Positions 24,979 to 40,915 of a DNA stretch of 64,000 nt are shown piece by piece. This stretch comes from a virus (taxonomy: Duplodnaviria > Caudoviricetes). Below the pieces are notes generated by a model. It searched no databases. It was not told where the DNA came from and saw only the letters and a list, made by a program, of their open reading frames with translations. Each line of letters begins with the position of its first letter. Position 1 is the stretch's first letter. A program made the position numbers and the translations under genes. The DNA is taken from the IMG/VR virus record IMGVR_UViG_3300010340_001122; one strand, 5' to 3'.

Positions 24979-26703
24979 ATGGCATCAACCTATAATCCTT
25001 TAAATCAAACTAGTAATGTTCAATCAATGAATAGTGCTGTTGAAAATAGAGGTCTTTTTAGCAGAATACTTAGAAATTTATCTTCATGGGGTATGAATTA
25101 TGATGATATGATCATGAGAAACCAAGTCGGAGTTGGTATTAATGAAGATCCATATTCACAACAGGGCAATTCTATGTATGATTTCTTTTCAAGAAGAGCA
25201 GTAGCATCTGTTTTAAATAGAAAATCAATACCTTATTTAGATAGATCCTATGCAGATAAGAGAAGAATATTGAGAGAATATTCTATAAAAGATGAAATTA
25301 GAGATTTTGTTTCTAGCGTTTGTGATGAAGCGGTTATTTATTCTGATAAAGATTTTTGTAAACCTAAAAATATATCTACTGATTATTCACAAGATATTAG
25401 AGATAAATACCAAGAATATTTTGAAACAATTTATAATAGATATGGATTTTCAGATTCAGTTTCAGCTTGGAATTTAATGAAAGATTTCCTTATCGATGGG
25501 TATGTTGCTATGGAAATTGTCTGGGATGATAAAAAGAAAAATATTATACATTTTAATAGATTAAGACCCGAGACACTTCTTCCAGCTTTTGAACCTTCTA
25601 TTGGACATCTTTGGATTCAATATCCAGAAGATCCTCAACTTAGAAGAATATTTCTAGATTCACAATTAATATTCATTTCATATTCAACTCAAAATGATTA
25701 TTCCGAGACTTCTTATGTTGAAGGATTGATTAAGCCTTATAATCAAATGAAGATTATAGAACAGACGAAAATTATGTTCAATATTATAAATGCAACAGTT
25801 TATCAGAAATTTACAATTCCGGTAAAGGGTCTTTCAAGACAAAAGGCAGAAGAACAAATAGGACAATTAATAAATGATTATTCGGAAGAAGTTGAGTGGG
25901 ATGATTCATTAGGTACTTTACAAATAAATGGTACTAAACACTTACCATATAATAAACAAATCTGGTTTCCAGAAGGTGATGCTGGTACTCCTAATATGGA
26001 GTTGATATCACCACAAGGACATAATTTAAATGAAGATGATATTTTAAAATGGTTTTATAATATTTTAAAAAGAGCTTCTAAAATTCCTGTTCAAAGATTT
26101 GAAGGTGATAATGGCGGTGGTAATGTTTTTACAGATGCTGCTGAGATGACTAGAGATGAAGCTAAATTTTCTAATTTTATTAATAGATTGAGAGCTAATT
26201 TTAAAGAACTAATAGTTAAACCACTTAAATTACAAATGTTGGTTGAGTTTCCAGAACTTAAAGATGATGAGATTGCATTAAATCAAATTGATATTGATTT
26301 TATATCAAATCAATTATTTGAGGAGTGGAAAAAACTTGGAAATATGTCTAAAAAAATTGAAATTCTTGGATCATATACTGGAATACAAAAAGCTGATGGT
26401 ACTCCATATTTTCATATTGAATATTTGATAGATAATGTTTTAAAACTAACAGCAGAGGAGAAAGAAGAAAATAAAAGATATTGGATTAATGATTCTGCTG
26501 GTGGTGGATCTTCTGAGGCTACTCCGGGAGATGGTATCTCAGATGCTGGTGCGGGTGGTGCTGGAGGAGATTTTGGAGGTGGTGCTGAAATGGGTGCTCA
26601 ATCTACTACTGAATCCCCAACTCCTGAAACTCCAGCTCCTGATGCAGGTGGATCAGATTCTTCGCCAGACACTGGTGGTGAAAGTTCAGAATTTGAATTC
26701 TAA
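24979..26703 (+). CDS. Portal protein, gp20-like
   Basis: FLIDG, SYVEGLIKPYNQMKIIE, KIPVQRF and EMTRDEAKFSNFINRLR motifs; Gly/acidic tail. Confidence 0.92.
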   Translation: MASTYNPLNQTSNVQSMNSAVENRGLFSRILRNLSSWGMNYDDMIMRNQVGVGINEDPYSQQGNSMYDFFSRRAVASVLNRKSIPYLDRSYADKRRILREYSIKDEIRDFVSSVCDEAVIYSDKDFCKPKNISTDYSQDIRDKYQEYFETIYNRYGFSDSVSAWNLMKDFLIDGYVAMEIVWDDKKKNIIHFNRLRPETLLPAFEPSIGHLWIQYPEDPQLRRIFLDSQLIFISYSTQNDYSETSYVEGLIKPYNQMKIIEQTKIMFNIINATVYQKFTIPVKGLSRQKAEEQIGQLINDYSEEVEWDDSLGTLQINGTKHLPYNKQIWFPEGDAGTPNMELISPQGHNLNEDDILKWFYNILKRASKIPVQRFEGDNGGGNVFTDAAEMTRDEAKFSNFINRLRANFKELIVKPLKLQMLVEFPELKDDEIALNQIDIDFISNQLFEEWKKLGNMSKKIEILGSYTGIQKADGTPYFHIEYLIDNVLKLTAEEKEENKRYWINDSAGGGSSEATPGDGISDAGAGGAGGDFGGGAEMGAQSTTESPTPETPAPDAGGSDSSPDTGGESSEFEF

Positions 26704-27140
26704 GCGGATAGTTTAGACTTACTACAAGCTTGAAATCCATTTATTTCATAATAATTATAAGAATGTAATATTACTACTCTAAAATCTATTGTATGACCAA
26801 TTTCTAATAAATTTAATAGTATTTTACCATTTGGTGTTTCTAATATATTTATATCTAAATTGATCTTAATTACATTAAGATCTTTATCAACTACAAATGA
26901 CATTGAGTTAATAGAAAATGTTGAATCTTTTAATCTGAATGAATATTCATCTGAGGATACCGTATCTAATCCACATATTAATGGTGGATTCATATTAGTA
27001 ATATCGAATTGTGATTTATTACCTAATAGAGAATTTATTTTTATTTCTCTATAAAAAGATTTATAATCTCTATATTTTTCTAAAATGTTTTTAAAACATT
27101 CAAGATTGTGAAAATTTTCTAATTTAACATCAACTATCAT
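26700..27140 (-). CDS. Hypothetical protein
   Basis: 146-aa ORF; contains YREIKINSLL. Confidence 0.55.
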   Translation of the reverse strand: MIVDVKLENFHNLECFKNILEKYRDYKSFYREIKINSLLGNKSQFDITNMNPPLICGLDTVSSDEYSFRLKDSTFSINSMSFVVDKDLNVIKINLDINILETPNGKILLNLLEIGHTIDFRVVILHSYNYYEINGFQACSKSKLSA

Positions 27141-27646: not shown

Positions 27647-29800
27647 ATGAAATCAGTTCTTATTGTTGAAAATTCAACTAATTCTTTGAGTGTATCAGAG
27701 AGTTCAATTAATAGGGATCAGCATATCTTAGGTGGTGTATTCACAGAGTTTGATGTTAAAAATCGTAACGAAAGAGTATATACAGCCGACAGATTTCTTC
27801 CTTGTTTACAAGAAATGAATGAGCGAATACAAAACATGGGCGTAGTCTATGGTGAGTTCGACCATCCGGATGTTTTCGATACTTCGTTATCGAGAGCGTC
27901 ACATATAATCACAAAAGCAAGTTACATTAAAGAAAGTAATAGAGTCGAAGGTGAAATTAAATTACTTAGTACACATTGGGGTAAAGAGGCAAAGTCATTG
28001 GTAAATGATGGTTGTCCAATTTTCGTTTCGTCACGTGCTGCTGGTATTACAGAATCTGACGGTACAGTAACATTGAAGAAATTATTTACATATGATATTG
28101 TAGCAGATCCGGGTTTTGCATCTGCAAGGATGAGTGTAAAAGTTCTTAATGAGTCATTAGGCTATAAAGACCCAAAATCTAACTTTAGGATATATGAAAT
28201 GTCCGATGAGTCAAAAATAAATGATTTATTCAATATGAACAATAATAATCTGGTGACAAAAACACAATTAACAGAATATTCTAAATATCTTGTTAATGAG
28301 TTGGCTTCTACAAAAAAAGAAGTTCGTAATGCAATTACCAAAGGTAATCTTAATCCAAAAAAATTGGAGCAATTGTTAGAATATTACGAAAATTTAAATG
28401 AGACAAATTCTCAAATAGTTAAATATTTAGATTATTTAGCTGAAAAAGTTCAAGTAATGGTAAATGAAAACACTTCACTTAAAACTACTGCTGAAAAACT
28501 TATTAAACATAATGACTATTTAGCTGAAAATCTTGAAAAGGCAATTAACTATACTGAATATGTTGCTGAAAATCTTGATAAAAACATTGAGTATTCAGAA
28601 TATTTAGCTGAAAATCTTGATAAAAACATTTCTTATTCAGAATATATCGCTGAAAATCTTGATAAAAACATTTCTTATTCAGAATATTTAGCTGAAAATC
28701 TTGACAAGAATATTGCATATTCAGAATATATTGCTGAAAATCTTGACAAGAATATTGCATATTCAGAATATATCGCTGAAAATCTTGACAAAAATATTTC
28801 ATATTCAGAATATTTGGCAGAACACCTTGATAATTCAATTGCATATTCAGAATATTTAGCTGAACATGTTGAGGGAAATATCGCATATTCAGAATATATC
28901 GCTGAAAATCTTGACGATAACATCGCATATTCAGAATATGTTGCTGAAAACTTAGATAAATCAATTTCTTATCAAGGATTGATTGTTGAAAAGTTAAATG
29001 GTGGTAGATTATTTGAATCTACTGGCGAAGAAGGTGAAATGCTTCCAACATTAAAATCTGCTGGATTCGATTCTTATGAAGAAGAGGAAGAATCAGAAGA
29101 AGAAGAGGAAGAAAACTGGAATGATTCATCTGAAGCACCTGCTGCTGATGAAACTCCAAAATTAGAATCATATGATGAAGAAGAATCTTCTGAAGATGAG
29201 TCTAGTGAAGAGTCTGACGACGACACTTATAGTGATGAGTCTAATGACGATGAATATTCTCCTGAATATGAGGGAAAATCAGACACAGAATTATCTAAAT
29301 CTATTGATAAATTGATCGAAGAAGCTAAAAAACGTAAAGCTGTTGAAACATCCGATCTACACTTTTTAAAATTCTTAAACAAATCTCAGGTTGATAGTTT
29401 CTATTCATTAACAAATGAAGAACAAGAAACTGTTACACTTTACATAAGCGAAAAAAGTTTCTTATCACAACAAGACGTGTTAAGATTAGTATCTGAGGCT
29501 TTGAGTTCAAAGAATGAATCTCTTGAAGAAAGAGTAATCAGATTGATGCCTGAAAACATCAAGCCAATCTGGAACCAATTAAATGAGAATGCTAGAAAAT
29601 CTATCTTATCACAAGCTAGACTTTATCCATCAGAAGTTCTTACAACAGAATCACAAGTTGATCACTTCTGGATGACTAGAAATCTCAAGAAAAATGAATC
29701 AGTTACTAAGAAATTAGTATCACATGAAAGCTTAATCCAAGAAGATAAAATATCTGAAAAGGAATTAACAGCAATCATGGAAAGATTCAAAAATCTATAA
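27647..29800 (+). CDS. Prohead protease (gp21-like) fused to scaffold/core protein
   Basis: N.N.RVY, YGEFDHP, VSSRAAG, TYDIVADPGF protease motifs, then coiled-coil repeats and an acidic linker; directly upstream of the capsid gene. Confidence 0.9.
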   Translation: MKSVLIVENSTNSLSVSESSINRDQHILGGVFTEFDVKNRNERVYTADRFLPCLQEMNERIQNMGVVYGEFDHPDVFDTSLSRASHIITKASYIKESNRVEGEIKLLSTHWGKEAKSLVNDGCPIFVSSRAAGITESDGTVTLKKLFTYDIVADPGFASARMSVKVLNESLGYKDPKSNFRIYEMSDESKINDLFNMNNNNLVTKTQLTEYSKYLVNELASTKKEVRNAITKGNLNPKKLEQLLEYYENLNETNSQIVKYLDYLAEKVQVMVNENTSLKTTAEKLIKHNDYLAENLEKAINYTEYVAENLDKNIEYSEYLAENLDKNISYSEYIAENLDKNISYSEYLAENLDKNIAYSEYIAENLDKNIAYSEYIAENLDKNISYSEYLAEHLDNSIAYSEYLAEHVEGNIAYSEYIAENLDDNIAYSEYVAENLDKSISYQGLIVEKLNGGRLFESTGEEGEMLPTLKSAGFDSYEEEEESEEEEEENWNDSSEAPAADETPKLESYDEEESSEDESSEESDDDTYSDESNDDEYSPEYEGKSDTELSKSIDKLIEEAKKRKAVETSDLHFLKFLNKSQVDSFYSLTNEEQETVTLYISEKSFLSQQDVLRLVSEALSSKNESLEERVIRLMPENIKPIWNQLNENARKSILSQARLYPSEVLTTESQVDHFWMTRNLKKNESVTKKLVSHESLIQEDKISEKELTAIMERFKNL
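28517..28978 (+). repeat. Eleven 42-bp coding tandem repeats (Y[LIV]AENLDKNI[AS]YSE)
   Basis: Directly visible in DNA and protein. Confidence 0.95.
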
Positions 29801-31573: not shown

Positions 31574-31610
31574 AAAACAAAAAACCCTCCTATGGAGGGT
31601 TTTTTGTTTT
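31574..31610. terminator. Bidirectional intrinsic terminator
   Basis: aaaacaaaaaaccctcc-tat-ggagggttttttgtttt. Confidence 0.9.
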
Positions 31611-33005
31611 TTATCTTTTCCATATAAATTTAGAATTACCAGCTCCGTATATTCTGTAAATTTTCAATTCTTTTAATATTTGATGTTCTGATTTATTTTT
31701 ATCATAACCCATTTTAATTAAATTACTTTTATTATAATTGTGGCGACTTAATCTTTTATTTCCTTTTATATACCAATATGATATTTTGGATTCTGAATGA
31801 TAATTCATTCCAATTTTTTCATAAAATTTACCAGCCCATTCATTTGCACTGAAACTATAGATATATTCAACATCTTTATAAGTTTTAATAAAGTAATTAA
31901 ATAATTTACTACCAGCTCCAATAACATTACTATTTAATTTATTGCAAAATCTATATAACTCATATGTTATTTTATCATTTTTACTTGACATATTTCCCCT
32001 TGGTTTGCCAAATGTCATGACTGATACAAGTTCATTATTATGATATAATCCTAAATTTATACTTGACTTTATTGAACCCTGTAAATGATTATTAGTTAAA
32101 AATTCATTAGTTTCTTTAAAATTTATTTCTTTGATATGACATTTTCTAGCATAAATTTTAATTTTATTTAAATGTAATAAATTTTTAATCCTACTTTTTA
32201 CAATTTCTTGTTTATTTATCCATTCATCTTCATATATTTGAATTAATACTATATTATTCTTACATGACTTTTTATATTTAGAGTAATGATAATCTTTTTT
32301 TTTATTTATTTCAGAATGCCAATAGAGACCATTATATTCAAATCCTAAATTTAAATCCGGTATAAATATATCAATTTCGGTTCCTATTAATTTTCTATCA
32401 TTATAAATTATTTTTCCTGTATAAATACTTTTAATAAAATTTCTAACATCAATTTCACCATTTGAGACACTAAATGAATAGCTTACACAGCTTCTCCAAT
32501 CTAAACCAAGATATATTCTTTGTTCTATAACTTTTCTTTCAATTTTGTGTGTTTTTTCACATAAATCACATATAATTTCATACACATCATCTTCTGTTGT
32601 GTTTATTAGCTTCGCATCTCCTATTATTTTTATTAAATCATTAATTCTTTTATTTTTACGATTTTTAATATTTTTTGGTATTAGTGATGGATGATAAACA
32701 CCATATTCTTTGAATAATGTTTCTTTAGCTAAATTTTTTGATCCAGATGAACCACAAGAATTTGAACAATATTTTTGATATCCAATTGTTTTATTTTTAT
32801 ATTTTACTTTTTTACCACAATTTGGACAATTTGGAGTTTCATTTATATTAAATCTTAATTTATAAGCTTTCTCACTAATAGTATCTCCATCATTTTTTAA
32901 TATTTCCTCATATATATTCAAAGCATTATTTAATAACCATTTCTCAGTTGTGTATATACCTGATACATTATTATCATATAGTTCAAAATATTTTTCTATT
33001 CTCAT
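31611..33005 (-). mobile_element. Hef-like (PD-(D/E)XK) homing endonuclease
   Basis: CPNC and CSNSC zinc motifs, EIDIFIP..GFEYNGLYWHS, IYARKC, YELYRFC; start placed at ATG 33005 (MRIEKYFE). Confidence 0.8.
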
Positions 33006-33081
33006 TAATATATTATATATTGAATTAATATTTGGTTTTTTCCCCACACTATATTTAATAATTAAAAATAATATATACCTT

Positions 33082-33480
33082 ATGAAAATAAAAAGATATT
33101 GTAATTTTTATGAGTCGAAATCTGATAAATTTCCAAATATAAAAACTGTAATTATAGATGATTTTACTATTATGATAGGAAAAGATGCTTTGTCTAATGA
33201 TTATTTAACGACAAAGATGGCTAATGATGAGGACCTTTGGTTTCATGCTGCTGGTGTCCCTGGTAGTCATATAGTTATAAGGATTAAAGATAAGTTGCCT
33301 TCTCCAGAATTAATAAAGGAGGTTTCTAAACTAGCTGTTAAAAATTCAAAGGCACCAAAGGGAAATAAAGCTAAAGTAGTCTATTGTAAAGCTAAATTTG
33401 TTAAAAAATCATCTGATATGAAGCCCGGTCAAGTAATTGTTGATTATAAAAACTCGGAAGAAGTCATAGTTGAAAATTAA
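33082..33480 (+). CDS. Stand-alone NFACT RNA-binding (DUF814) domain protein
   Basis: IGKDALSNDYLT...DLWFHAAGVPGSHIVI...KPGQV; N-terminus MKIKRYCNFYES. Confidence 0.85.
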   Translation: MKIKRYCNFYESKSDKFPNIKTVIIDDFTIMIGKDALSNDYLTTKMANDEDLWFHAAGVPGSHIVIRIKDKLPSPELIKEVSKLAVKNSKAPKGNKAKVVYCKAKFVKKSSDMKPGQVIVDYKNSEEVIVEN

Positions 33481-33504: not shown

Positions 33505-34863
33505 ATGAATAAAACACTTTATGTGAAATTTACTGATAAGTTATACGACATAATTGATGATATAAGTGGTCCTATCTCTGAGGCTCTTATGAGAATGGAA
33601 GGTGACTATCTATTAAAAAATGAACTAGGAATTGGATTAGTTGATGTGTCAAAGTCTGATTGGAATTTTGATGTTACTATTGATGGTAAGGTTCAAAGAA
33701 TGAAAATTGGTAAATATATTAGATATTTTTTTACTGATGACGATGGTTCTTGTGTATTTAATAATAAACAAATATTTGATTTTGGTCAAAGTTACAATAA
33801 TTTAAAAAATGGAAAACCATTGCCAATTACTAATGATAAATCATCCTATAAAAAAGTTGAAGTAACACAATTTAGTTTTAATCCTAAAGATGTTAGATCT
33901 ACATTTCTATCATTAACGACAATGACTTACCCACATGGACATGAGGAAGAAGTTATGAAGTTTATGCCAAGTGGTTTAGAAAAAGATGAATTTGGTAATT
34001 ATTATAAAATAATTGGAAAATCTGAAACGATGTTTACTTCACATTTAGATACTGCTGATAGAAAGCAGTCTAAAGTATCTATTTATAGTGTTGATAAGGA
34101 CGGAGATGAGATGTTTGTAACTGATGGAACATCCATACTTGGTGCTGATGATAAATCTGGTGTTTCAGTTATGTTATATATGATGGCTCATAATATTCCG
34201 GGTATTTATTACTTTTTTATTGGTGAGGAAAGAGGTGGTATTGGTTCTAATAAAGTTGCTGGTATATTTGAAAGTGTTGTACATTTAAAAGGTGTTAAAA
34301 GATGTGTTTCTTTTGATAGAAGAAATTATTTTTCAATTATAACATCACAATTAGGTAGACAATGTTGTTCAAATGAGTTTGCGACCGCGCTAGCTGGTGA
34401 GTTAAATAAATCAGGATTAAAAATATCTTTGGATCCAACTGGAGTTTATACCGATTCAGCTTCTTTTATAGATGAGATTCCTGAATGTACTAATGTTTCT
34501 GTTGGTTATTTTTCTGAGCATACAGTTAATGAGAGTCAAAACATATCATATCTAACTAGATTAGCTGAGGCTTGTTTGAAGGTAGATTGGGAGAAATTAC
34601 CAACTGTTAAAAAGGTTGGATTTGATGAGGAGATTCTTAGAAAGTATAAGAATTTTATATCAGATTTTAAATCTACGGTATTTACTTTAGAGACTAGAAT
34701 GGTTAGTGAGTATGGAACTGCTTATATAAAAATGGATATAGATGATCCTGATGCTACAAACGTTTATGAAGATTTACAAATGATGAATCTGTTGTTAGAT
34801 AAATATAAAATAGATCCTGATGTTTATTTTGATGATCAATTTATAAAAATAGAATTAAAATAA
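33505..34863 (+). CDS. M28-family Zn peptidase-like protein with N-terminal extension
   Basis: SHLDT, GADDKSG, GEERG, D and H metal-ligand motifs. Confidence 0.75.
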   Translation: MNKTLYVKFTDKLYDIIDDISGPISEALMRMEGDYLLKNELGIGLVDVSKSDWNFDVTIDGKVQRMKIGKYIRYFFTDDDGSCVFNNKQIFDFGQSYNNLKNGKPLPITNDKSSYKKVEVTQFSFNPKDVRSTFLSLTTMTYPHGHEEEVMKFMPSGLEKDEFGNYYKIIGKSETMFTSHLDTADRKQSKVSIYSVDKDGDEMFVTDGTSILGADDKSGVSVMLYMMAHNIPGIYYFFIGEERGGIGSNKVAGIFESVVHLKGVKRCVSFDRRNYFSIITSQLGRQCCSNEFATALAGELNKSGLKISLDPTGVYTDSASFIDEIPECTNVSVGYFSEHTVNESQNISYLTRLAEACLKVDWEKLPTVKKVGFDEEILRKYKNFISDFKSTVFTLETRMVSEYGTAYIKMDIDDPDATNVYEDLQMMNLLLDKYKIDPDVYFDDQFIKIELK

Positions 34864-35340: not shown

Positions 35341-35704
35341 GGGGATGATATGAATTGATTCGCAGGGTAATGATGGTTAAGCAAGCATCGGTTTGGTAAA
35401 GTCCGATTAAAATAAATTATCAAAATCGTAAACGGAAACGTTACAGAAGTAGGAACCAGTGAAGATTTAGTAGCTGCTCTACAAAACAACTTGCTCACTG
35501 TGAATGAGCTTGAAGTAGCTTAATTGATACTTTCACAAAATTCACACTGAATCACAACAGTATAAATAGTGATAGTTTTTTGTTAGAGTGTTTTTGAGTC
35601 GAAACAACTATCTATTTTGTGAGTTAAAGAAAAACTTTCTAAGCTTGTGAACGATTGATCGTTTTTAACTGAGGAAGACTCCGGTTCGTTACCGGACATC
35701 TCCA
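35341..35704 (+). ncRNA. ssrA: tmRNA
   Basis: 5' GGGGATG pairs with 3' CATCTCC-A, giving the G3.U Ala identity pair; T-arm TCCGG-TTCGTTA-CCGGA; TAAGCTTGT 3' motif; internal tag ORF 35434-35523; CCA not encoded. Confidence 0.9.
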
Positions 35705-35713
35705 CTGAACCAC

Positions 35714-35770
35714 TCCAAAGATAGTATCTTTGGACCAACACCAACTCAAAAGGTTGGTGTTTCTTTTTTT
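35714..35770 (+). terminator. Two hairpins after the tmRNA, the second with a U tract
   Basis: tccaaagat-agt-atctttgga and aacaccaac...gttggtgtttcttttttt. Confidence 0.7.
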
Positions 35771-35808: not shown

Positions 35809-36525
35809 TTAATTGGTGGTGTAATCAATTTTATCCTTTTTGATATCTCTATTTACTCTACTACATAGAGGCTGTAGATTCGTGTAATGGTTTAGCTTTA
35901 TGATTTCTTCTTCGTTTTTTGCTGATGATAGTGGTATAATGTGGTCAATATCCCAACCGTAATTTAACTCACCATTATATAGTCCTTTGTTATCCCAGCT
36001 CATCCAATTCTCAAATTTTGATTCTATATAAATTTTAAAATATTCAAATGAACAACCTAATATATCTTGTGTTTTTGATGTTTTTGAATGACCTTTATTT
36101 TTAATTGATGTGTAAATGATATTTCTAATATTTAAAGTAAATTTAAATAAATAATCAATCTCTTTTCTATTTTTGTGATAAATTGATTTTTTTTCTTTAT
36201 TTTTACTTCTATATTCTTTTTCATATTCTTTTTTAGCATCAATATTCATAATTCTATACTCCTTTTGGTATTTTATTATTTTATCTTTCTTATCCTTATA
36301 ATATTCTAAATGATACTTTTTGCTTCTCTCTTTAATTTTATCTTTATTTTCCTCTAAGTATAATTCTATTTTATCTTTATTTTTTAGATAATATATTTTT
36401 CTTTTTTCTTTATTTTTAAGAAATAAACATTCTTTACAAAAATTAAGATAACCATCTTTCATTTTAATATTTTTATTAAACTCACTAAATTCTTTATTAG
36501 TTTTACAACCTTTACATAATTTCAT
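35809..36525 (-). mobile_element. HNH homing endonuclease
   Basis: CKGC...CKEC N-terminus, Lys-rich linker, WDIDHIIPLS...NHYTNLQPL...N. Confidence 0.85.
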
Positions 36526-36555
36526 AATATATATATTAAAAATAGAACCTTCCTT

Positions 36556-36732
36556 ATGGGTGAAGTTAGAAAAAAGTATAATTCTGATAAAATTTCAAAA
36601 AAGAAGTATAATTCTGATAAAACTTTTATTCAGATATCAAAAGACTTACATCAACAAGTTAAAGTATATTGTGATTTGAGTAACATATCTATTCGTGAAT
36701 TTTTAGAAAAAATAATTAAAGAAAGTTTATGA
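36556..36732 (+). CDS. Small ribbon-helix-helix-like DNA-binding protein (58 aa, not in ORF track)
   Basis: MGEVRKKYNSDKISKKKYNSDKTFIQISKDLHQQVKVYCDLSNISIREFLEKIIKESL; ATGA overlap with the NADAR gene. Confidence 0.6.
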   Translation: MGEVRKKYNSDKISKKKYNSDKTFIQISKDLHQQVKVYCDLSNISIREFLEKIIKESL

Positions 36733-37235
36733 TTGATAAATTTGATGGTCGGTATAATTTTCTCTCAAATTTCTACCCTGCTAAGATAGAACATCAGGGT
36801 ATTACTTACCCAACTTTGGAACACTACTACGTATCTATGAAGGTTAAAAACGATCAACAAATAGATGGTAAGTATATCACTATGATCGATTGTAGGGAAC
36901 TCATTGCCAAAATGCCTGATCCGGCAAAGGTTAAACAATTTGGTAAGATAATTAAAGTTAGAAAAGACTGGGATGATGTTAAATTGGATGTTATGTTATG
37001 GGGAATTCGTGAGAAATTTAAACATCAAGACTTAAAAGAAATGTTATTAGCGACTGATGATGAAGAATTGGTTGAAGGCAATTATTGGCACGATAATTTT
37101 TTTGGAGTATGTACTTGTGGTCCTTGTTACGGTCAGGGTCAAAATAATCTCGGTAAGATTTTAATGAAAGTTCGAATGGAATTGGGACAACAAAATGATA
37201 AGCCTTCACTAGAAGATATACTTTTTAAAAAATAA
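36729..37235 (+). CDS. NADAR (YbiA-like) family protein
   Basis: FLSNFY, EHYY, WD.VK..VM, KF, LVEGN.WHD.FFG, GQNNLGKILMKVR. Confidence 0.9.
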   Translation: MIDKFDGRYNFLSNFYPAKIEHQGITYPTLEHYYVSMKVKNDQQIDGKYITMIDCRELIAKMPDPAKVKQFGKIIKVRKDWDDVKLDVMLWGIREKFKHQDLKEMLLATDDEELVEGNYWHDNFFGVCTCGPCYGQGQNNLGKILMKVRMELGQQNDKPSLEDILFKK

Positions 37236-37247
37236 ATAGAAAATAAT

Positions 37248-38195
37248 ATGTCAATTATAAGTTATTTTGGAGGCAAGAGTTCTTCAATATTTCAAGATTT
37301 AATTAATAAAAGAATTCCCAAAACAGGAATAAAAACCTATATAGAACCATTCTCAGGAGCTATGGGAACGTATATGGACGATGATTCTCTTAAATTTGAA
37401 CAAGTTGTCTATAATGATAAAAATAGACATCAGGTGAATCTATATAAGTGTTGTTCAGATCCTGAAAAGTTTATTACATATTTAGAAAATTTATCCAAAC
37501 CATTTAATATTCTTTATACAGAGTTAAAAACACCACTAGAAAAATGGGATTTTTATAAAGGTGTATATAGGGAATATATCAAGAATAGTTTTCTTGATGA
37601 TATGAATTTTGAAATAGGTAACTTTGAAAAGGCGGCTATATATGCGTTCTTGATCACATCTGCCCATAATTCTGTTTACCCTCGCGGCGCTGGATTTAAT
37701 GGGTATAAGAAAGATAAAGATCGTTTAAAATTAGAGGTTTTAATTAAAAAGTTAAAAAATAATACTTATACAAGTAAATTACACTCAATTACTGAATTTT
37801 ATAACATCGATTTTGAGGAATTAATTTTAAAATATGATTCAGATGATACTTATCTTTATTTAGATCCACCATACGCTCGATTTAATGAGTCAAAGGGTGA
37901 AGATGATGCCAAAAGATTATTTTGGTATGGTTCGGATGGTGATGGTGTATTTGGTCCAGCCTCACATAGAAGATTATTAGAATTAATAAAAACTACAAAA
38001 TGTCGATGGTCTCTTTCATATTACTATTTTCCATTATTAGAGGAACTTTTACCAAGAGATAAATATCGTTGGATTGAAAAGGAAGTATTTAGAAGCTCTG
38101 CTCAGGGTGGTAACAATGCGGATATTAAAAAGGAGCAATCTAAAGGTGTTGAGCTACTTATCATGAATTATGACGAAAACGGAATTAAATTTTAA
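37248..38195 (+). CDS. DNA adenine methyltransferase (Dam/D12 class)
   Basis: YFGGKS, YIEPFSG, YND, YLDPPY, ELLIMNY. Confidence 0.9.
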   Translation: MSIISYFGGKSSSIFQDLINKRIPKTGIKTYIEPFSGAMGTYMDDDSLKFEQVVYNDKNRHQVNLYKCCSDPEKFITYLENLSKPFNILYTELKTPLEKWDFYKGVYREYIKNSFLDDMNFEIGNFEKAAIYAFLITSAHNSVYPRGAGFNGYKKDKDRLKLEVLIKKLKNNTYTSKLHSITEFYNIDFEELILKYDSDDTYLYLDPPYARFNESKGEDDAKRLFWYGSDGDGVFGPASHRRLLELIKTTKCRWSLSYYYFPLLEELLPRDKYRWIEKEVFRSSAQGGNNADIKKEQSKGVELLIMNYDENGIKF

Positions 38196-38945
38196 ATGAA
38201 TATTGAAGAATTTTTTAAAAATGCTTTTAAAAAAGTAAATATTGATTTACCTTTTAAGCGATTAGAATCAGATATTTCAAACTATCAAAAATATAATTTG
38301 TATGTCAATTTACCACCAAAGGTGGTGGATTTCGAGGAAATGTATTATAACTTATTAAGAGAAAATATTGTTCGTGAGATTAATCAGTATGCTTTAAAAG
38401 TTATTATTGGTGATATAAAATCTAAGGGAAGTGTTAATTTTATTGACGTGATAGATATCAATGATAATACTAATTATAGCACAATTATCAGTATGTCAAG
38501 AAAAATTGTTAGTGAGATTAAAAATCTTAATTTACCTAATGTTATCACAAATGGTAGAATAGCTTCAGATTATCTTATGGATTCTCCAGGGTTTAATACA
38601 TATCCGATTAAAACTAGTTTAGATAGATTTAATACCTTTACAAAACATGGAAATCTTTTTGGCAGTATTGATGTTTATCTCGATTCATATATGAAATGGA
38701 ATGATGATTTCATTTTATCTTATGATGATGTCTATTATGATTTATCTGATATAAAAATCAATATTAAACAAGATCCTTCAATTACTCCAGTTCTTGAAGT
38801 TGAATTTATGATATATCATAATATTATTAATCCAAAGTTGACGTATATTGTAGAAAATGTAACTTCAACTGCCTATTCAAAATATAAATCTGAATTAAGA
38901 AATAAACGAATTGATAATATATTAGATGATGATAAAACACCTTAA
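38196..38945 (+). CDS. Diverged, truncated major-capsid-protein paralog
   Basis: ITNGRIASDYLMDSPGF...G.IDVYLDSYMKWNDDFI aligns by eye with capsid VTNGGLAASLMDIAGY...GDISIYVDPYMKYNDNRI. Confidence 0.65.
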   Translation: MNIEEFFKNAFKKVNIDLPFKRLESDISNYQKYNLYVNLPPKVVDFEEMYYNLLRENIVREINQYALKVIIGDIKSKGSVNFIDVIDINDNTNYSTIISMSRKIVSEIKNLNLPNVITNGRIASDYLMDSPGFNTYPIKTSLDRFNTFTKHGNLFGSIDVYLDSYMKWNDDFILSYDDVYYDLSDIKINIKQDPSITPVLEVEFMIYHNIINPKLTYIVENVTSTAYSKYKSELRNKRIDNILDDDKTP

Positions 38946-39303
38946 TCGAATTTATAAACTTGGATATGATATTGAGGTCGTTTGGAATAAACAGATTCAA
39001 ATAACATATGATTTCAATAGAATTTCAGGATTTGAAGAGTATGATCCAGTCTCTGTACTTATTTATGTACATGATTTCTGGAATGAATCTTTAAATTTTC
39101 AAAAGTGTTTAGAAGAAACTTGTGAGATATTTTATTCTTGGTATTCCGATAATCATAAGATGATATTAAAATATCTTGAGAATCCTCAAAAGAAATTCGA
39201 TCATTTCGCTTCAAGATCAAATATAGACAGTTTATCACTCGGTGATGTTAGTTCACAGGTGAATCGAGGAATGAGAATTGATGATATATTAGATGATTAT
39301 TGA
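38926..39303 (+). CDS. Hypothetical protein
   Basis: 125 aa; C-terminal RGMRIDDIL. Confidence 0.55.
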   Translation: MMIKHLNRIYKLGYDIEVVWNKQIQITYDFNRISGFEEYDPVSVLIYVHDFWNESLNFQKCLEETCEIFYSWYSDNHKMILKYLENPQKKFDHFASRSNIDSLSLGDVSSQVNRGMRIDDILDDY

Positions 39304-40237: not shown

Positions 40238-40915
40238 ATGGAACAAATTATTATAGAAATAAGAGCCGCTGAGGGCGGTCAAGATTCAAAACTTCTTGTA
40301 GAAGATTTAAGAGATATTTATCTCAAAACAGCACGAGTTAATAACTTCGATTGTAAGGTTACTAACAGAGATGGATTTGCATCTATCTGACTGACTGGTA
40401 AGAAAGTTAAGACATTTTTTAAAAATGAAAGTGGACCACATCGATGGTTAAGAATTCCACCAACTGAAAAAAAAGGTAGGACACAGACTTCAATAATTAC
40501 GGTTGCTCTAATTGATCCAAGTGATAAATTAGATTTTAATTTCAATCGTAGTGAAGTTACTAAACAATATACGAGAAGTGGTGGCGCCGGTGGTCAGAAT
40601 GTTAATCGTAGATCCACTTGTGTTCAACTAACTCATTTACCAACAGGTATTCAAGTTAAGTGTCAAGATACAAGAGACCAATGTAAAAATGAGGAATTAG
40701 CTTGGATTCGTCTTGAAGATAAACTTAGAGTAATACATGATGCGACTCAGATCAAGACAGTTTATCAAAATCGTTTCGATCAAGTTGGTACAGGTTCAAG
40801 ATCGGACAAGAAGAGATCATATAGAATCAAAGAGAATTTGGTAGTTGATCATGAAACAGGTAAGACTTGTTCATTTACTGATTTCTTAAAGGGTAGAATT
40901 GATTTATTGTCCTAA
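40238..40915 (+). CDS. Class I peptide chain release factor, RF1-type (PxT), lacking domain 1, with in-frame TGA at codon 51
   Basis: MEQIIIEIRAAEGG...GFASI*LTGK...ESGPHRWLRIPPTEKKGRTQTS...SGGAGGQNVN...THLPTGI...RSDKKRSY; 225 codons in one frame, TGA at 40388-40390. Confidence 0.9.

Follow-up and report, generated by a model that had tools for sequence, protein, structure and literature searches.

Paralogues of capsid proteins are known as bricks of the shell, the textbook case being gp24 of phage T4, a late and stoichiometric virion protein that keeps the arm, the loop and the insertion. A different use of a protein resembling the major capsid protein (MCP) is made by the satellite SaPIbov5, whose MCP-like Ccm co-assembles into small capsids and redirects assembly. 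In encapsulin operons the shell gene lies directly downstream of an enzyme gene, and C-terminal targeting peptides are used by encapsulin cargo as well as by the HK97 protease. A report on the PhiKZ capsid (PMC11297242) describes an MCP that makes both hexamers and pentamers, with C-terminal arms forming a central helix bundle.

In this work we analyze gene X, which encodes a compact, 249-residue HK97-fold paralogue of the MCP, in a 64,000-nucleotide stretch of viral DNA (Duplodnaviria; Caudoviricetes; IMG/VR record IMGVR_UViG_3300010340_001122), hereafter the window. The window has a G+C content of 27% and a T4-like head module, and near-identical DNA is present in activated-sludge, digester, wastewater and freshwater metagenomes. 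X has in common with T4 gp24 (PDB 1YUE) that it is related as an HK97-fold paralogue to the gp23-type MCP of its phage, and that its gene follows the MCP gene downstream on the same strand; unlike gp24, a full-length chain of 427 residues, it has no counterpart of MCP residues 1-329, lies in a methylase operon behind two terminator-like hairpins, evolves rapidly and carries a C-terminal tag common to unrelated small open reading frames (ORFs). It resembles Ccm, an MCP-like protein too, in that its gene stands apart from the usual head operon, and differs from it in being encoded by the phage rather than by a satellite; co-assembly into capsids would be hypothetical for X. X is best explained as an intact, selected accessory gene, and we put at about 40% the probability that its product is a soluble, non-polymerising look-alike of the capsid core, addressed by its tag. 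A search of the open-access literature, with subscription journals outside its reach, returned no description of a separately encoded mini-MCP bearing a tag of this kind.

X is a true homologue, and a paralogue, of the phage's own MCP. BLASTP aligns X116-174 with MCP451-507 at E 2e-7 and 36% identity over 64 residues, spanning the ITNG...LMD and VY.D.YMK.ND blocks. Among the 393 stop-to-stop ORFs of at least 40 residues in the window, X is the top non-self match of the hidden Markov model (HMM) of the MCP family (E 9.2e-7), and the reverse search with the X-family HMM recovers the window MCP at E 2.5e-23. Profile-profile comparison of 150 X-family members with 18 MCPs using hhalign gives a probability of 99.4% (E 4.7e-21) over 158 columns, pairing X45-208 with MCP346-550; with only 43 close X homologues the probability was 91.5%. 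The homology is extended by hmmalign to strand X31-38, opposite MCP330-336, and X1-44 is otherwise without a profile-profile match to the MCP. All HMM and hhalign alignments are confined to MCP residues 330-564, so that residues 1-329, comprising the N-terminal leader, the N-terminal arm (N-arm) region and a large insertion, have no counterpart in X.

A first-pass annotation of this DNA, made by eye, had described X as a truncated, diverged MCP copy on the strength of three matching segments. All three fall inside statistically supported alignments; for the helix segment the region is right, corresponding to the spine helix, and the register is not, since hhalign places the segment four residues off. 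The missing N-arm is borne out by alignments that start only after MCP residue 329, and truncation describes the sequence well, if not, as set out below, the structure. T4 gp23-type proteins (PF07068; PDB 7VRT, 5VF3) provide the best structural match of X, which has sequence blocks in common with the window MCP and differs from this family in keeping the core only; it falls below the gathering score of PF07068 and reaches no Pfam family at E<=1. No PHROG match was better than E 0.034. Against PDB sequences, the X profile built from 43 close homologues found nothing, that built from 150 diverse members returned non-significant rows only, gp24 among them (E 0.37), and the MCP profile had no match at E<=1e-3; Protein Atlas scores (0.89) stayed below the level counted as more than a lead. 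The MCP itself shares 66-70% identity with its counterparts in LR745206 and LR756502, two complete genomes of uncultured phages (634-642 kb), and 32-34% with those of Lak megaphages. The gp23-type group 2 of jumbo phages includes the Prevotella megaphage, according to a genomic survey (PMC7824862).

The predicted structure agrees with the sequence relationship. An AlphaFold2 (AF2) model of X computed from 150 diverse family members has a predicted local distance difference test score (pLDDT) of 89.9 and a predicted template modelling score (pTM) of 0.86, and supersedes a poor earlier run from 43 close homologues (pLDDT 57). Foldseek returned 129 PDB matches at E<=1e-3, every listed one an HK97-fold capsid protein or encapsulin, with T4 gp24 at the top (E 2.3e-6). 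The comparison with gp23 that the first-pass annotation had proposed as a check came out positive: VIA-align superposes X16-221 on residues 105-521 of T4 gp23 (7vrt) with Z 13.2 and a root-mean-square deviation (rmsd) of 3.7 over 199 residues, followed by T4 gp24 (Z 12.0, rmsd 4.2, 204 aligned residues), HK97 prohead II gp5 (Z 10.7, X8-220 on 120-383) and encapsulins (Z ~10.5 over X1-217). In BFVD, 144 matches were obtained at E<=1e-3, the named ones mostly capsid proteins, including two of 297 and 317 residues named as head or capsid vertex proteins. The model contains the spine helix, the A domain as well as the P-domain sheet of the HK97 fold, matched with Z 10-13 over X1-221, and these residues are predicted to form a complete minimal HK97 core rather than half a capsid protein. 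In the model the spine helix is preceded by no more than 47 residues, comprising a short helix, an eight-residue strand and a two-residue bridge, which would leave no space for both an N-arm and an E-loop hairpin; the E-loop is thus probably vestigial at most. Beyond the core, an extra helix at X225-245 is matched by almost no capsid structure. Complex prediction with three copies of X scored 0.00 against a mark of 0.42, which is no evidence either way on assembly.

The whole-length alignment with encapsulins, together with the position of X directly downstream of an enzyme gene, raises the idea that X builds a small encapsulin-like shell of its own round the products of neighbouring genes. 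Encapsulins and HK97 gp5, as minimal HK97 folds, are indeed similar to X in size and align over nearly all of it. They nevertheless share no sequence relationship with X, whose self-assembly would be hypothetical; the matches to phage capsid proteins have the better scores (Z 13.2 and 12.0), the E-loop appears vestigial at most, the operon's one tag sits on X and not on the methyltransferase (Dam) as putative cargo, and rapid divergence is atypical of shell proteins. We consider such a shell very improbable.

X belongs to a sizeable family. A word-indexed search turned up 49 relatives with identities of 40-94%, the full-length ones measuring 243-270 residues, and an exhaustive profile search extended the family to 175 clusters (at the 50% identity level) with E<=1e-3. 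Nearly all of the 150 clusters listed have lengths of 209-279 residues; none exceeds 279 and none is MCP-sized. The gene is intact in every genomic context that was inspected, and the family reaches down to about 20% identity. Because length is conserved over 175 clusters and the gene is intact in all contexts, X is under selection, and is neither a recent pseudogene nor a recent truncation. The best-kept positions form two groups: D129, F133, G152, D163 and D170, all within blocks that X and the MCP have in common (LMD..GY, VGQIGD and VDPYM..D), and R235, K/R238, I239 and L243 in the C-terminal helix, kept in 79-99% of 150 members. The helix is therefore conserved as strongly as the core of the fold (R235 99%, I239 91%).

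It is in this light that a functionless origin has to be judged. Homing-endonuclease-like genes flank the region and many other MCP-fragment ORFs exist in relatives, so X could in principle be a neutral by-product of partial MCP duplication, carried for instance by homing-endonuclease traffic. An intact gene of constant length in 175 clusters, a confident fold obtained from the family alignment and the conservation of tag residues specific to X speak against it, and family conservation brings this explanation close to refutation; we regard it as scarcely credible.

Selection has not kept X from changing quickly. Measured over the same 132 homologous columns, identity to the window is 72% for X and 90% for the MCP in relative L003, 67% and 99% in L004, 47% and 94% in L006, 21% and 81% in LR745206, and 24% and 80% in LR756502; the last two genomes compare with each other at 24% and 86%. 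Whole-gene identities between L006 and the window are 87% for Dam, 77% for the MCP, 69% for the NADAR-domain protein and 40% for X, and between LR756502 and the window 76% for Dam and 24% for X. In a joint tree, end branches are mostly 0.5-2 long for X against 0.03-0.07 for the MCP. X thus diverges at least ten times faster than a nearly invariant MCP, in the manner of a gene engaged in conflict. In the tree, X sequences radiate as an unresolved star round the MCP clade with 35 of 60 inner branches unsupported, and the duplication therefore cannot be dated from this tree.

Relatives show how varied this class of gene can be. The X profile identifies separate X-type genes adjoining Dam in both LR745206 and LR756502, where X is the sole other complete HK97-fold protein recovered by the MCP profile, the remaining matches being short fragments. 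In LR756500 there is a 313-residue form 22 kb from the MCP gene, and in LR756501 a 188-residue form, consisting of the A domain only, 465 kb away; the neighbours of these two genes gave nothing above Pfam gathering scores. Among cultured phages, ORF-116 of Tenacibaculum phage PTm1 is an X-type gene of 191 residues between genes for a nucleoside triphosphate pyrophosphohydrolase and a helicase, and gp215 of Chryseobacterium phage MA9V-2 one of 244 residues located 3.3 kb after the MCP gene. Since gp215 groups with the MCP of its own phage (Shimodaira-Hasegawa-like approximate likelihood ratio test, SH-aLRT, 96; 43% identity over 60 columns), it represents an independent duplication. Lak-B1 and LR756504 have no separate X at E<=0.01, the MCP itself being the sole match of the X profile. 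Short copies of the MCP core hence arise repeatedly, in varied architectures and mostly outside the head module.

A still smaller copy is present in the window itself, where the spine helix of the MCP is copied in a 69-residue ORF flanked by genes for a thioesterase and thymidylate synthase. It matches the MCP profile at positions 338-387 (E 1.2e-6) and the X profile at E 2.1e-5, and ends in the tag-like EKINRIIEK; by tblastn it is matched weakly in both LR745206 and LR756502 (E 0.006-0.01), and also by the MCPs of two Xanthomonas jumbo phages.

The extra C-terminal helix carries the motif …YKSELRNKRIDNILDDD, of RDxKIDxIL type. A 30-column HMM of this motif matches X at E 2e-17, stopping two residues short of the stop codon. 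The motif recurs, as the internal YKSFYREIKINSLLG, in a 146-residue protein encoded between the portal and scaffold genes, whose homologues also match (E 3.6e-6 in L006 and 1.2e-3 in L003), at the C-terminus of a 75-residue ORF, and in a 169-179-residue protein, a copy of the MCP leader and N-arm, encoded in LR745206 and LR756502. Each of these two complete genomes contains 31 matches at E<=1. In 15 regions of LR745206 picked for holding tag matches, 20 of 281 ORFs match at E<=0.01, compared with none in one reversed and two shuffled controls; 14 of the 20, with lengths of 62-256 residues, have the tag within seven residues of the stop. In the window, X and the 146-residue ORF, both members of the training set, are the only two of the 393 ORFs matching at E<=0.1 (decoys: 0), and at that threshold neither Dam nor the NADAR-domain protein matches. 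These sequence patterns mark the extra helix of X as an address tag common to the clade, for a putative docking partner.

Two other readings of the motif were discarded. A relation to the MCP segment PKIDLL (114-119) or to the N-terminus of gp24 involved three to six residues only, and a motif common to X and the next ORF turned out to be a DNA duplication (24 of 26 nt identical) rather than a functional similarity. That next ORF, of 125 residues, overlaps X at its 3' end and is confined to the window and L003; the duplication takes up its last ~40 nt and repeats the X 3' end, so that it ends in RIDDILDDY. The X of the window ends in DDDKTP and most close relatives in DDDKTLESNL, which suggests that an insertion into the X terminus was accompanied by a duplication, so that the tag was kept.

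Proteins assembled from pieces of the MCP N-terminus are a further feature of the complete relatives. The 169-179-residue protein is built of the leader (MCP 8-49), the N-arm (88-119) and then an RDxKIDxI tag, and ORFs of 172-177 residues carry the Gly-rich segment MCP 47-100. These small ORFs were noted at 291422-291742, 292948-293010 and 554988-555149 in LR745206, and at 315794-316108, 543067-543177 and 80276-80422 in LR756502. These N-terminus copies have no counterpart in the window.

The distribution of the tag also suggests that it might be an encapsidation, or cargo-loading, signal, X being injected with the DNA or serving as an internal adaptor that possibly brings its operon partners along. 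C-terminal placement on many small ORFs, presence in a portal-adjacent protein and in a protein copying the MCP leader and N-arm, and the precedent of encapsulin cargo and the HK97 protease all fit this proposal. So does P1, in which the anti-restriction proteins DarA and Hdf lie on the inner capsid surface (PMC12810830); there, capsid architecture is tied to DNA protection, and X is likewise in an operon with a methylase and a NADAR gene. No result, on the other hand, links the tag to the capsid, the operon partners Dam and NADAR are without it, and the capsid fold of the supposed cargo is left unexplained. We therefore hold a cargo role to be unlikely.

The genomic setting of X (Table 1) is conserved. 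In seven of seven contexts (those of the window, LR756502 and LR745206, of three different IMG/VR contigs, one of them present in duplicate, and of the more distant contig L029) the order MCP, NFACT-R protein, 452-residue protein, 138-residue protein, NADAR, D12 methylase and X is kept, and in all seven the start of X touches or overlaps the methylase stop. In the window the methylase and X share one reading frame (37248-38945) split by a single TAA; in relatives they overlap in different frames, so that no conserved read-through fusion is implied. The MCP-to-X array of the window is broken by two homing-endonuclease-like genes on the opposite strand, both absent at those positions in L003, L004 and L006; endonuclease genes likewise follow the MCP genes directly in PTm1 and MA9V-2.

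Table 1. Positions of X, its parts and the neighbouring features in the window
Feature	Positions	Strand	Basis or remark
Gene X, 249-residue compact HK97-fold paralogue of the MCP	38196..38945	+	ORF, hhalign, AF2, Foldseek, VIA-align
N-terminal piece of X peculiar to the family, residues 1-44 (with a short helix, 3-10, and a strand, 31-38)	38196..38327	+	AF2
Region of X homologous to MCP 346-550, residues 45-217 (spine helix, A domain, C-terminal P-domain strands)	38328..38846	+	
X residues 225-245, C-terminal helix with RDxKIDxIL-type tag	38868..38930	+	AF2, family alignment, tag HMM
Parent gene, gp23-type MCP, 574 residues	29835..31559	+	PF07068, E 3e-27, 96.4 bits
Portal gene	24979-26703		PF07230
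146-residue protein with internal tag-like motif	26700..27140	-	tag HMM, E 3.5e-5
717-residue ORF; relatives in cultured phages annotated as prohead core scaffold plus protease	27647-29800	+	
Intrinsic-terminator-like hairpin directly 3' of the MCP gene	31574..31610	+	17-pair stem, then T run
Homing-endonuclease-like gene	31611-33047	-	
NFACT-R protein	33082-33480		
Conserved 452-residue protein	33505-34863	+	no Pfam match
tmRNA-like RNA, 367 nt	35341-35707	+	RF00023, 36.7 bits, E 3.9e-13, under the gathering score of 47
Second terminator-like hairpin, between tmRNA-like/head-side genes and NADAR-Dam-X unit	35737..35761	+	
Homing-endonuclease-like gene	35809-36525	-	
58-residue ORF opening the NADAR-Dam-X unit	36556..36732	+	TAATATATA ahead at 36525-36533
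NADAR-domain protein, in the transcription unit of X	36729..37235	+	PF08719, E 5e-27
D12-class N6-adenine DNA methyltransferase (Dam)	37248..38195	+	PF02086, E 6.2e-16; stop codon abuts X start codon
125-residue ORF overlapping the X 3' end	38926-39303	+	
Release-factor fragment	40238-40390		PCRF, E 1.6e-6
69-residue ORF copying the MCP spine helix	57287-57496	+	

Because two terminator-like hairpins and a gene resembling transfer-messenger RNA (tmRNA) intervene, X is not part of the scaffold-MCP transcript and belongs to a separate NADAR-Dam-X unit, the placement outside the head operon that the first-pass annotation had given it; nor does it sit in a late head-gene unit beside the MCP, as a gp24-type protein would. 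In L003 a hairpin similar to the second one sits just upstream of NADAR, where the 3' part of the tmRNA-like gene is also kept. ARAGORN called no tmRNA at the position of that gene in the window.

The accompanying statement that the operon has no late motif is not strictly right, given that the 9-mer of the portal gene, TAATATATA, also occurs 23 nt ahead of the ORF with which the operon opens. This 9-mer has 23 sites in the window against 7.95 +/- 2.6 expected, an over-representation of about three times, and stands 15-30 nt before many start codons, including those of the portal, the 452-residue protein and several homing-endonuclease-like genes (e.g. 24949, 33478), as well as ahead of the tmRNA-like gene (35306). 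It is a candidate phage promoter element, and the early expression that the first-pass annotation proposed for X stays hypothetical. The site before the operon lies in a 30-nt gap shared with a divergent, inserted HNH gene, and in relatives the exact 9-mer was not found before NADAR, where near-variants only, such as TAATATAAT, are present. AAACATATW, tried as a promoter box for the operon, was rejected as not enriched (6 sites against 9.4 expected), and a scan for sigma-70-like promoters was uninformative (83 sites against 76.7 expected).

Three neighbours deserve mention in their own right. Translation-rescue genes cluster near the tmRNA-like gene, namely those for the NFACT-R protein and a release-factor fragment. 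The 717-residue ORF contains about ten tandem units of ~13 residues (…YSEYLAENLDKNI…) followed by an acidic stretch rich in Ser, Glu and Asp. In the 452-residue protein after the MCP, candidate metallopeptidase-like motifs (HLDTA, GADDKSG and GEERGG) were noted by eye in the LR745206 homologue.

The soluble look-alike that we favour would have arisen as follows. Copying of the folded MCP core (spine helix, A domain and C-terminal P-domain strands) would have produced a gene that then shed the parts that lock the lattice, namely the large insertion, the E-loop wholly or for the most part, and at the N-terminus both the leader and the arm region, and gained a short C-terminal helix with the RDxKIDxIL address tag common in the clade. 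With the NADAR-Dam operon, not the head operon, as its source, X would be brought by its tag to a docking partner that it shares with many other small tagged proteins. Once docked, it would present an MCP-like surface to a recogniser of the MCP core, which might be either the MCP with its assembly partners, X acting as an assembly modulator, or a capsid-sensing host factor, X acting as a mimic or decoy. Within this class the odds of host-directed mimicry and of assembly regulation are about even. Homology, fold, conservation across the family, synteny, the difference in rate, the unit of its own and the common tag are established by the analysis; solubility, the inability to polymerise and the nature of the partner are the parts of this scheme that we infer.

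Several observations pull the other way, and most of them would suit a gp24-type special shell subunit, forming pentamers at the eleven non-portal vertices or contributing to hetero-capsomers as a minor component. X follows the MCP gene on the same strand at a distance of ~6.6 kb, recalling T4 gene 24 after gene 23; the 9-mer ahead of the operon makes late expression possible; gp23 and gp24 are the top structural matches; and X is the only other complete HK97 fold retrieved by the MCP profile in the two complete relatives. The vertex-named BFVD proteins indicate that small size alone does not exclude a vertex role, and MA9V-2 has independently placed a short MCP duplicate close behind its MCP gene. 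Residues that X conserves with the MCP may reflect the mere core of the fold rather than an interface. The tag marks the portal-adjacent 146-residue protein and the paralogue of the MCP N-terminus, and therefore fits a head-associated role equally well. A special subunit could conceivably be kept in place by surrounding MCP hexamers, through their arms and loops, and by bundling of its own C-terminal helices, a rather unlikely arrangement with a parallel in the central bundle of PhiKZ hexamers (PMC11297242). Since some 55 copies per head would suffice, a weak operon position need be no obstacle.

What weighs more with us is the combination of features that a lattice subunit would not be expected to show. 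The N-arm, leader and insertion are without counterpart; divergence is at least ten times that of the MCP; and the gene stands in its own unit behind two terminators, among DNA-modification genes. Lak-B1 and LR756504 yielded no separate copy at E<=0.01, and those of LR756501, LR756500 and PTm1 are displaced or shortened, the LR756501 form being an A domain alone that cannot be a lattice subunit. The C-terminal helix, finally, is a tag common to dozens of unrelated small ORFs and not specific to capsids. We accordingly judge the shell-subunit role rather unlikely. The first-pass preference for an accessory protein over a gp24-type one gains from the fast divergence, patchy occurrence, variable architectures and shared tag, and a vertex or minor-shell role keeps a real share of the probability.

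A narrower form of the look-alike, also anticipated in that annotation, is a non-polymerising decoy that, with NADAR and Dam, occupies or blunts capsid sensors of the host of Avs, CapRel or TIR type. The case for it is circumstantial, consisting of the NADAR and Dam neighbours and of the accessory-type evolution of X. NADAR acts on DNA ADP-ribosylation. A genomic survey of jumbo phages (PMC7824862) treats it as a counter-defence-type domain. Sensors have been reported, in a preprint (bioRxiv 10.64898/2026.01.04.697583), to recognise conserved core folds of capsid proteins; on that account a copy of the capsid core should trigger rather than blunt them, unless it binds without activating, which is a further point against a look-alike aimed at the host. 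This specific decoy is, in our estimation, quite improbable. If true, it would be the first viral decoy of a capsid 'pattern', and the many other MCP-fragment genes of huge phages would be variations on this theme.

Unlike the capsid-protein paralogues known as shell bricks, the one described here is a stripped-down core, linked to a methylase, fast-evolving and tagged. X-type genes are widespread in huge phages of the wastewater and freshwater type, and the partners of the tag and of X could reveal how the assembly of large heads is controlled, how cargo is loaded into them, or how these phages answer capsid-sensing immunity.

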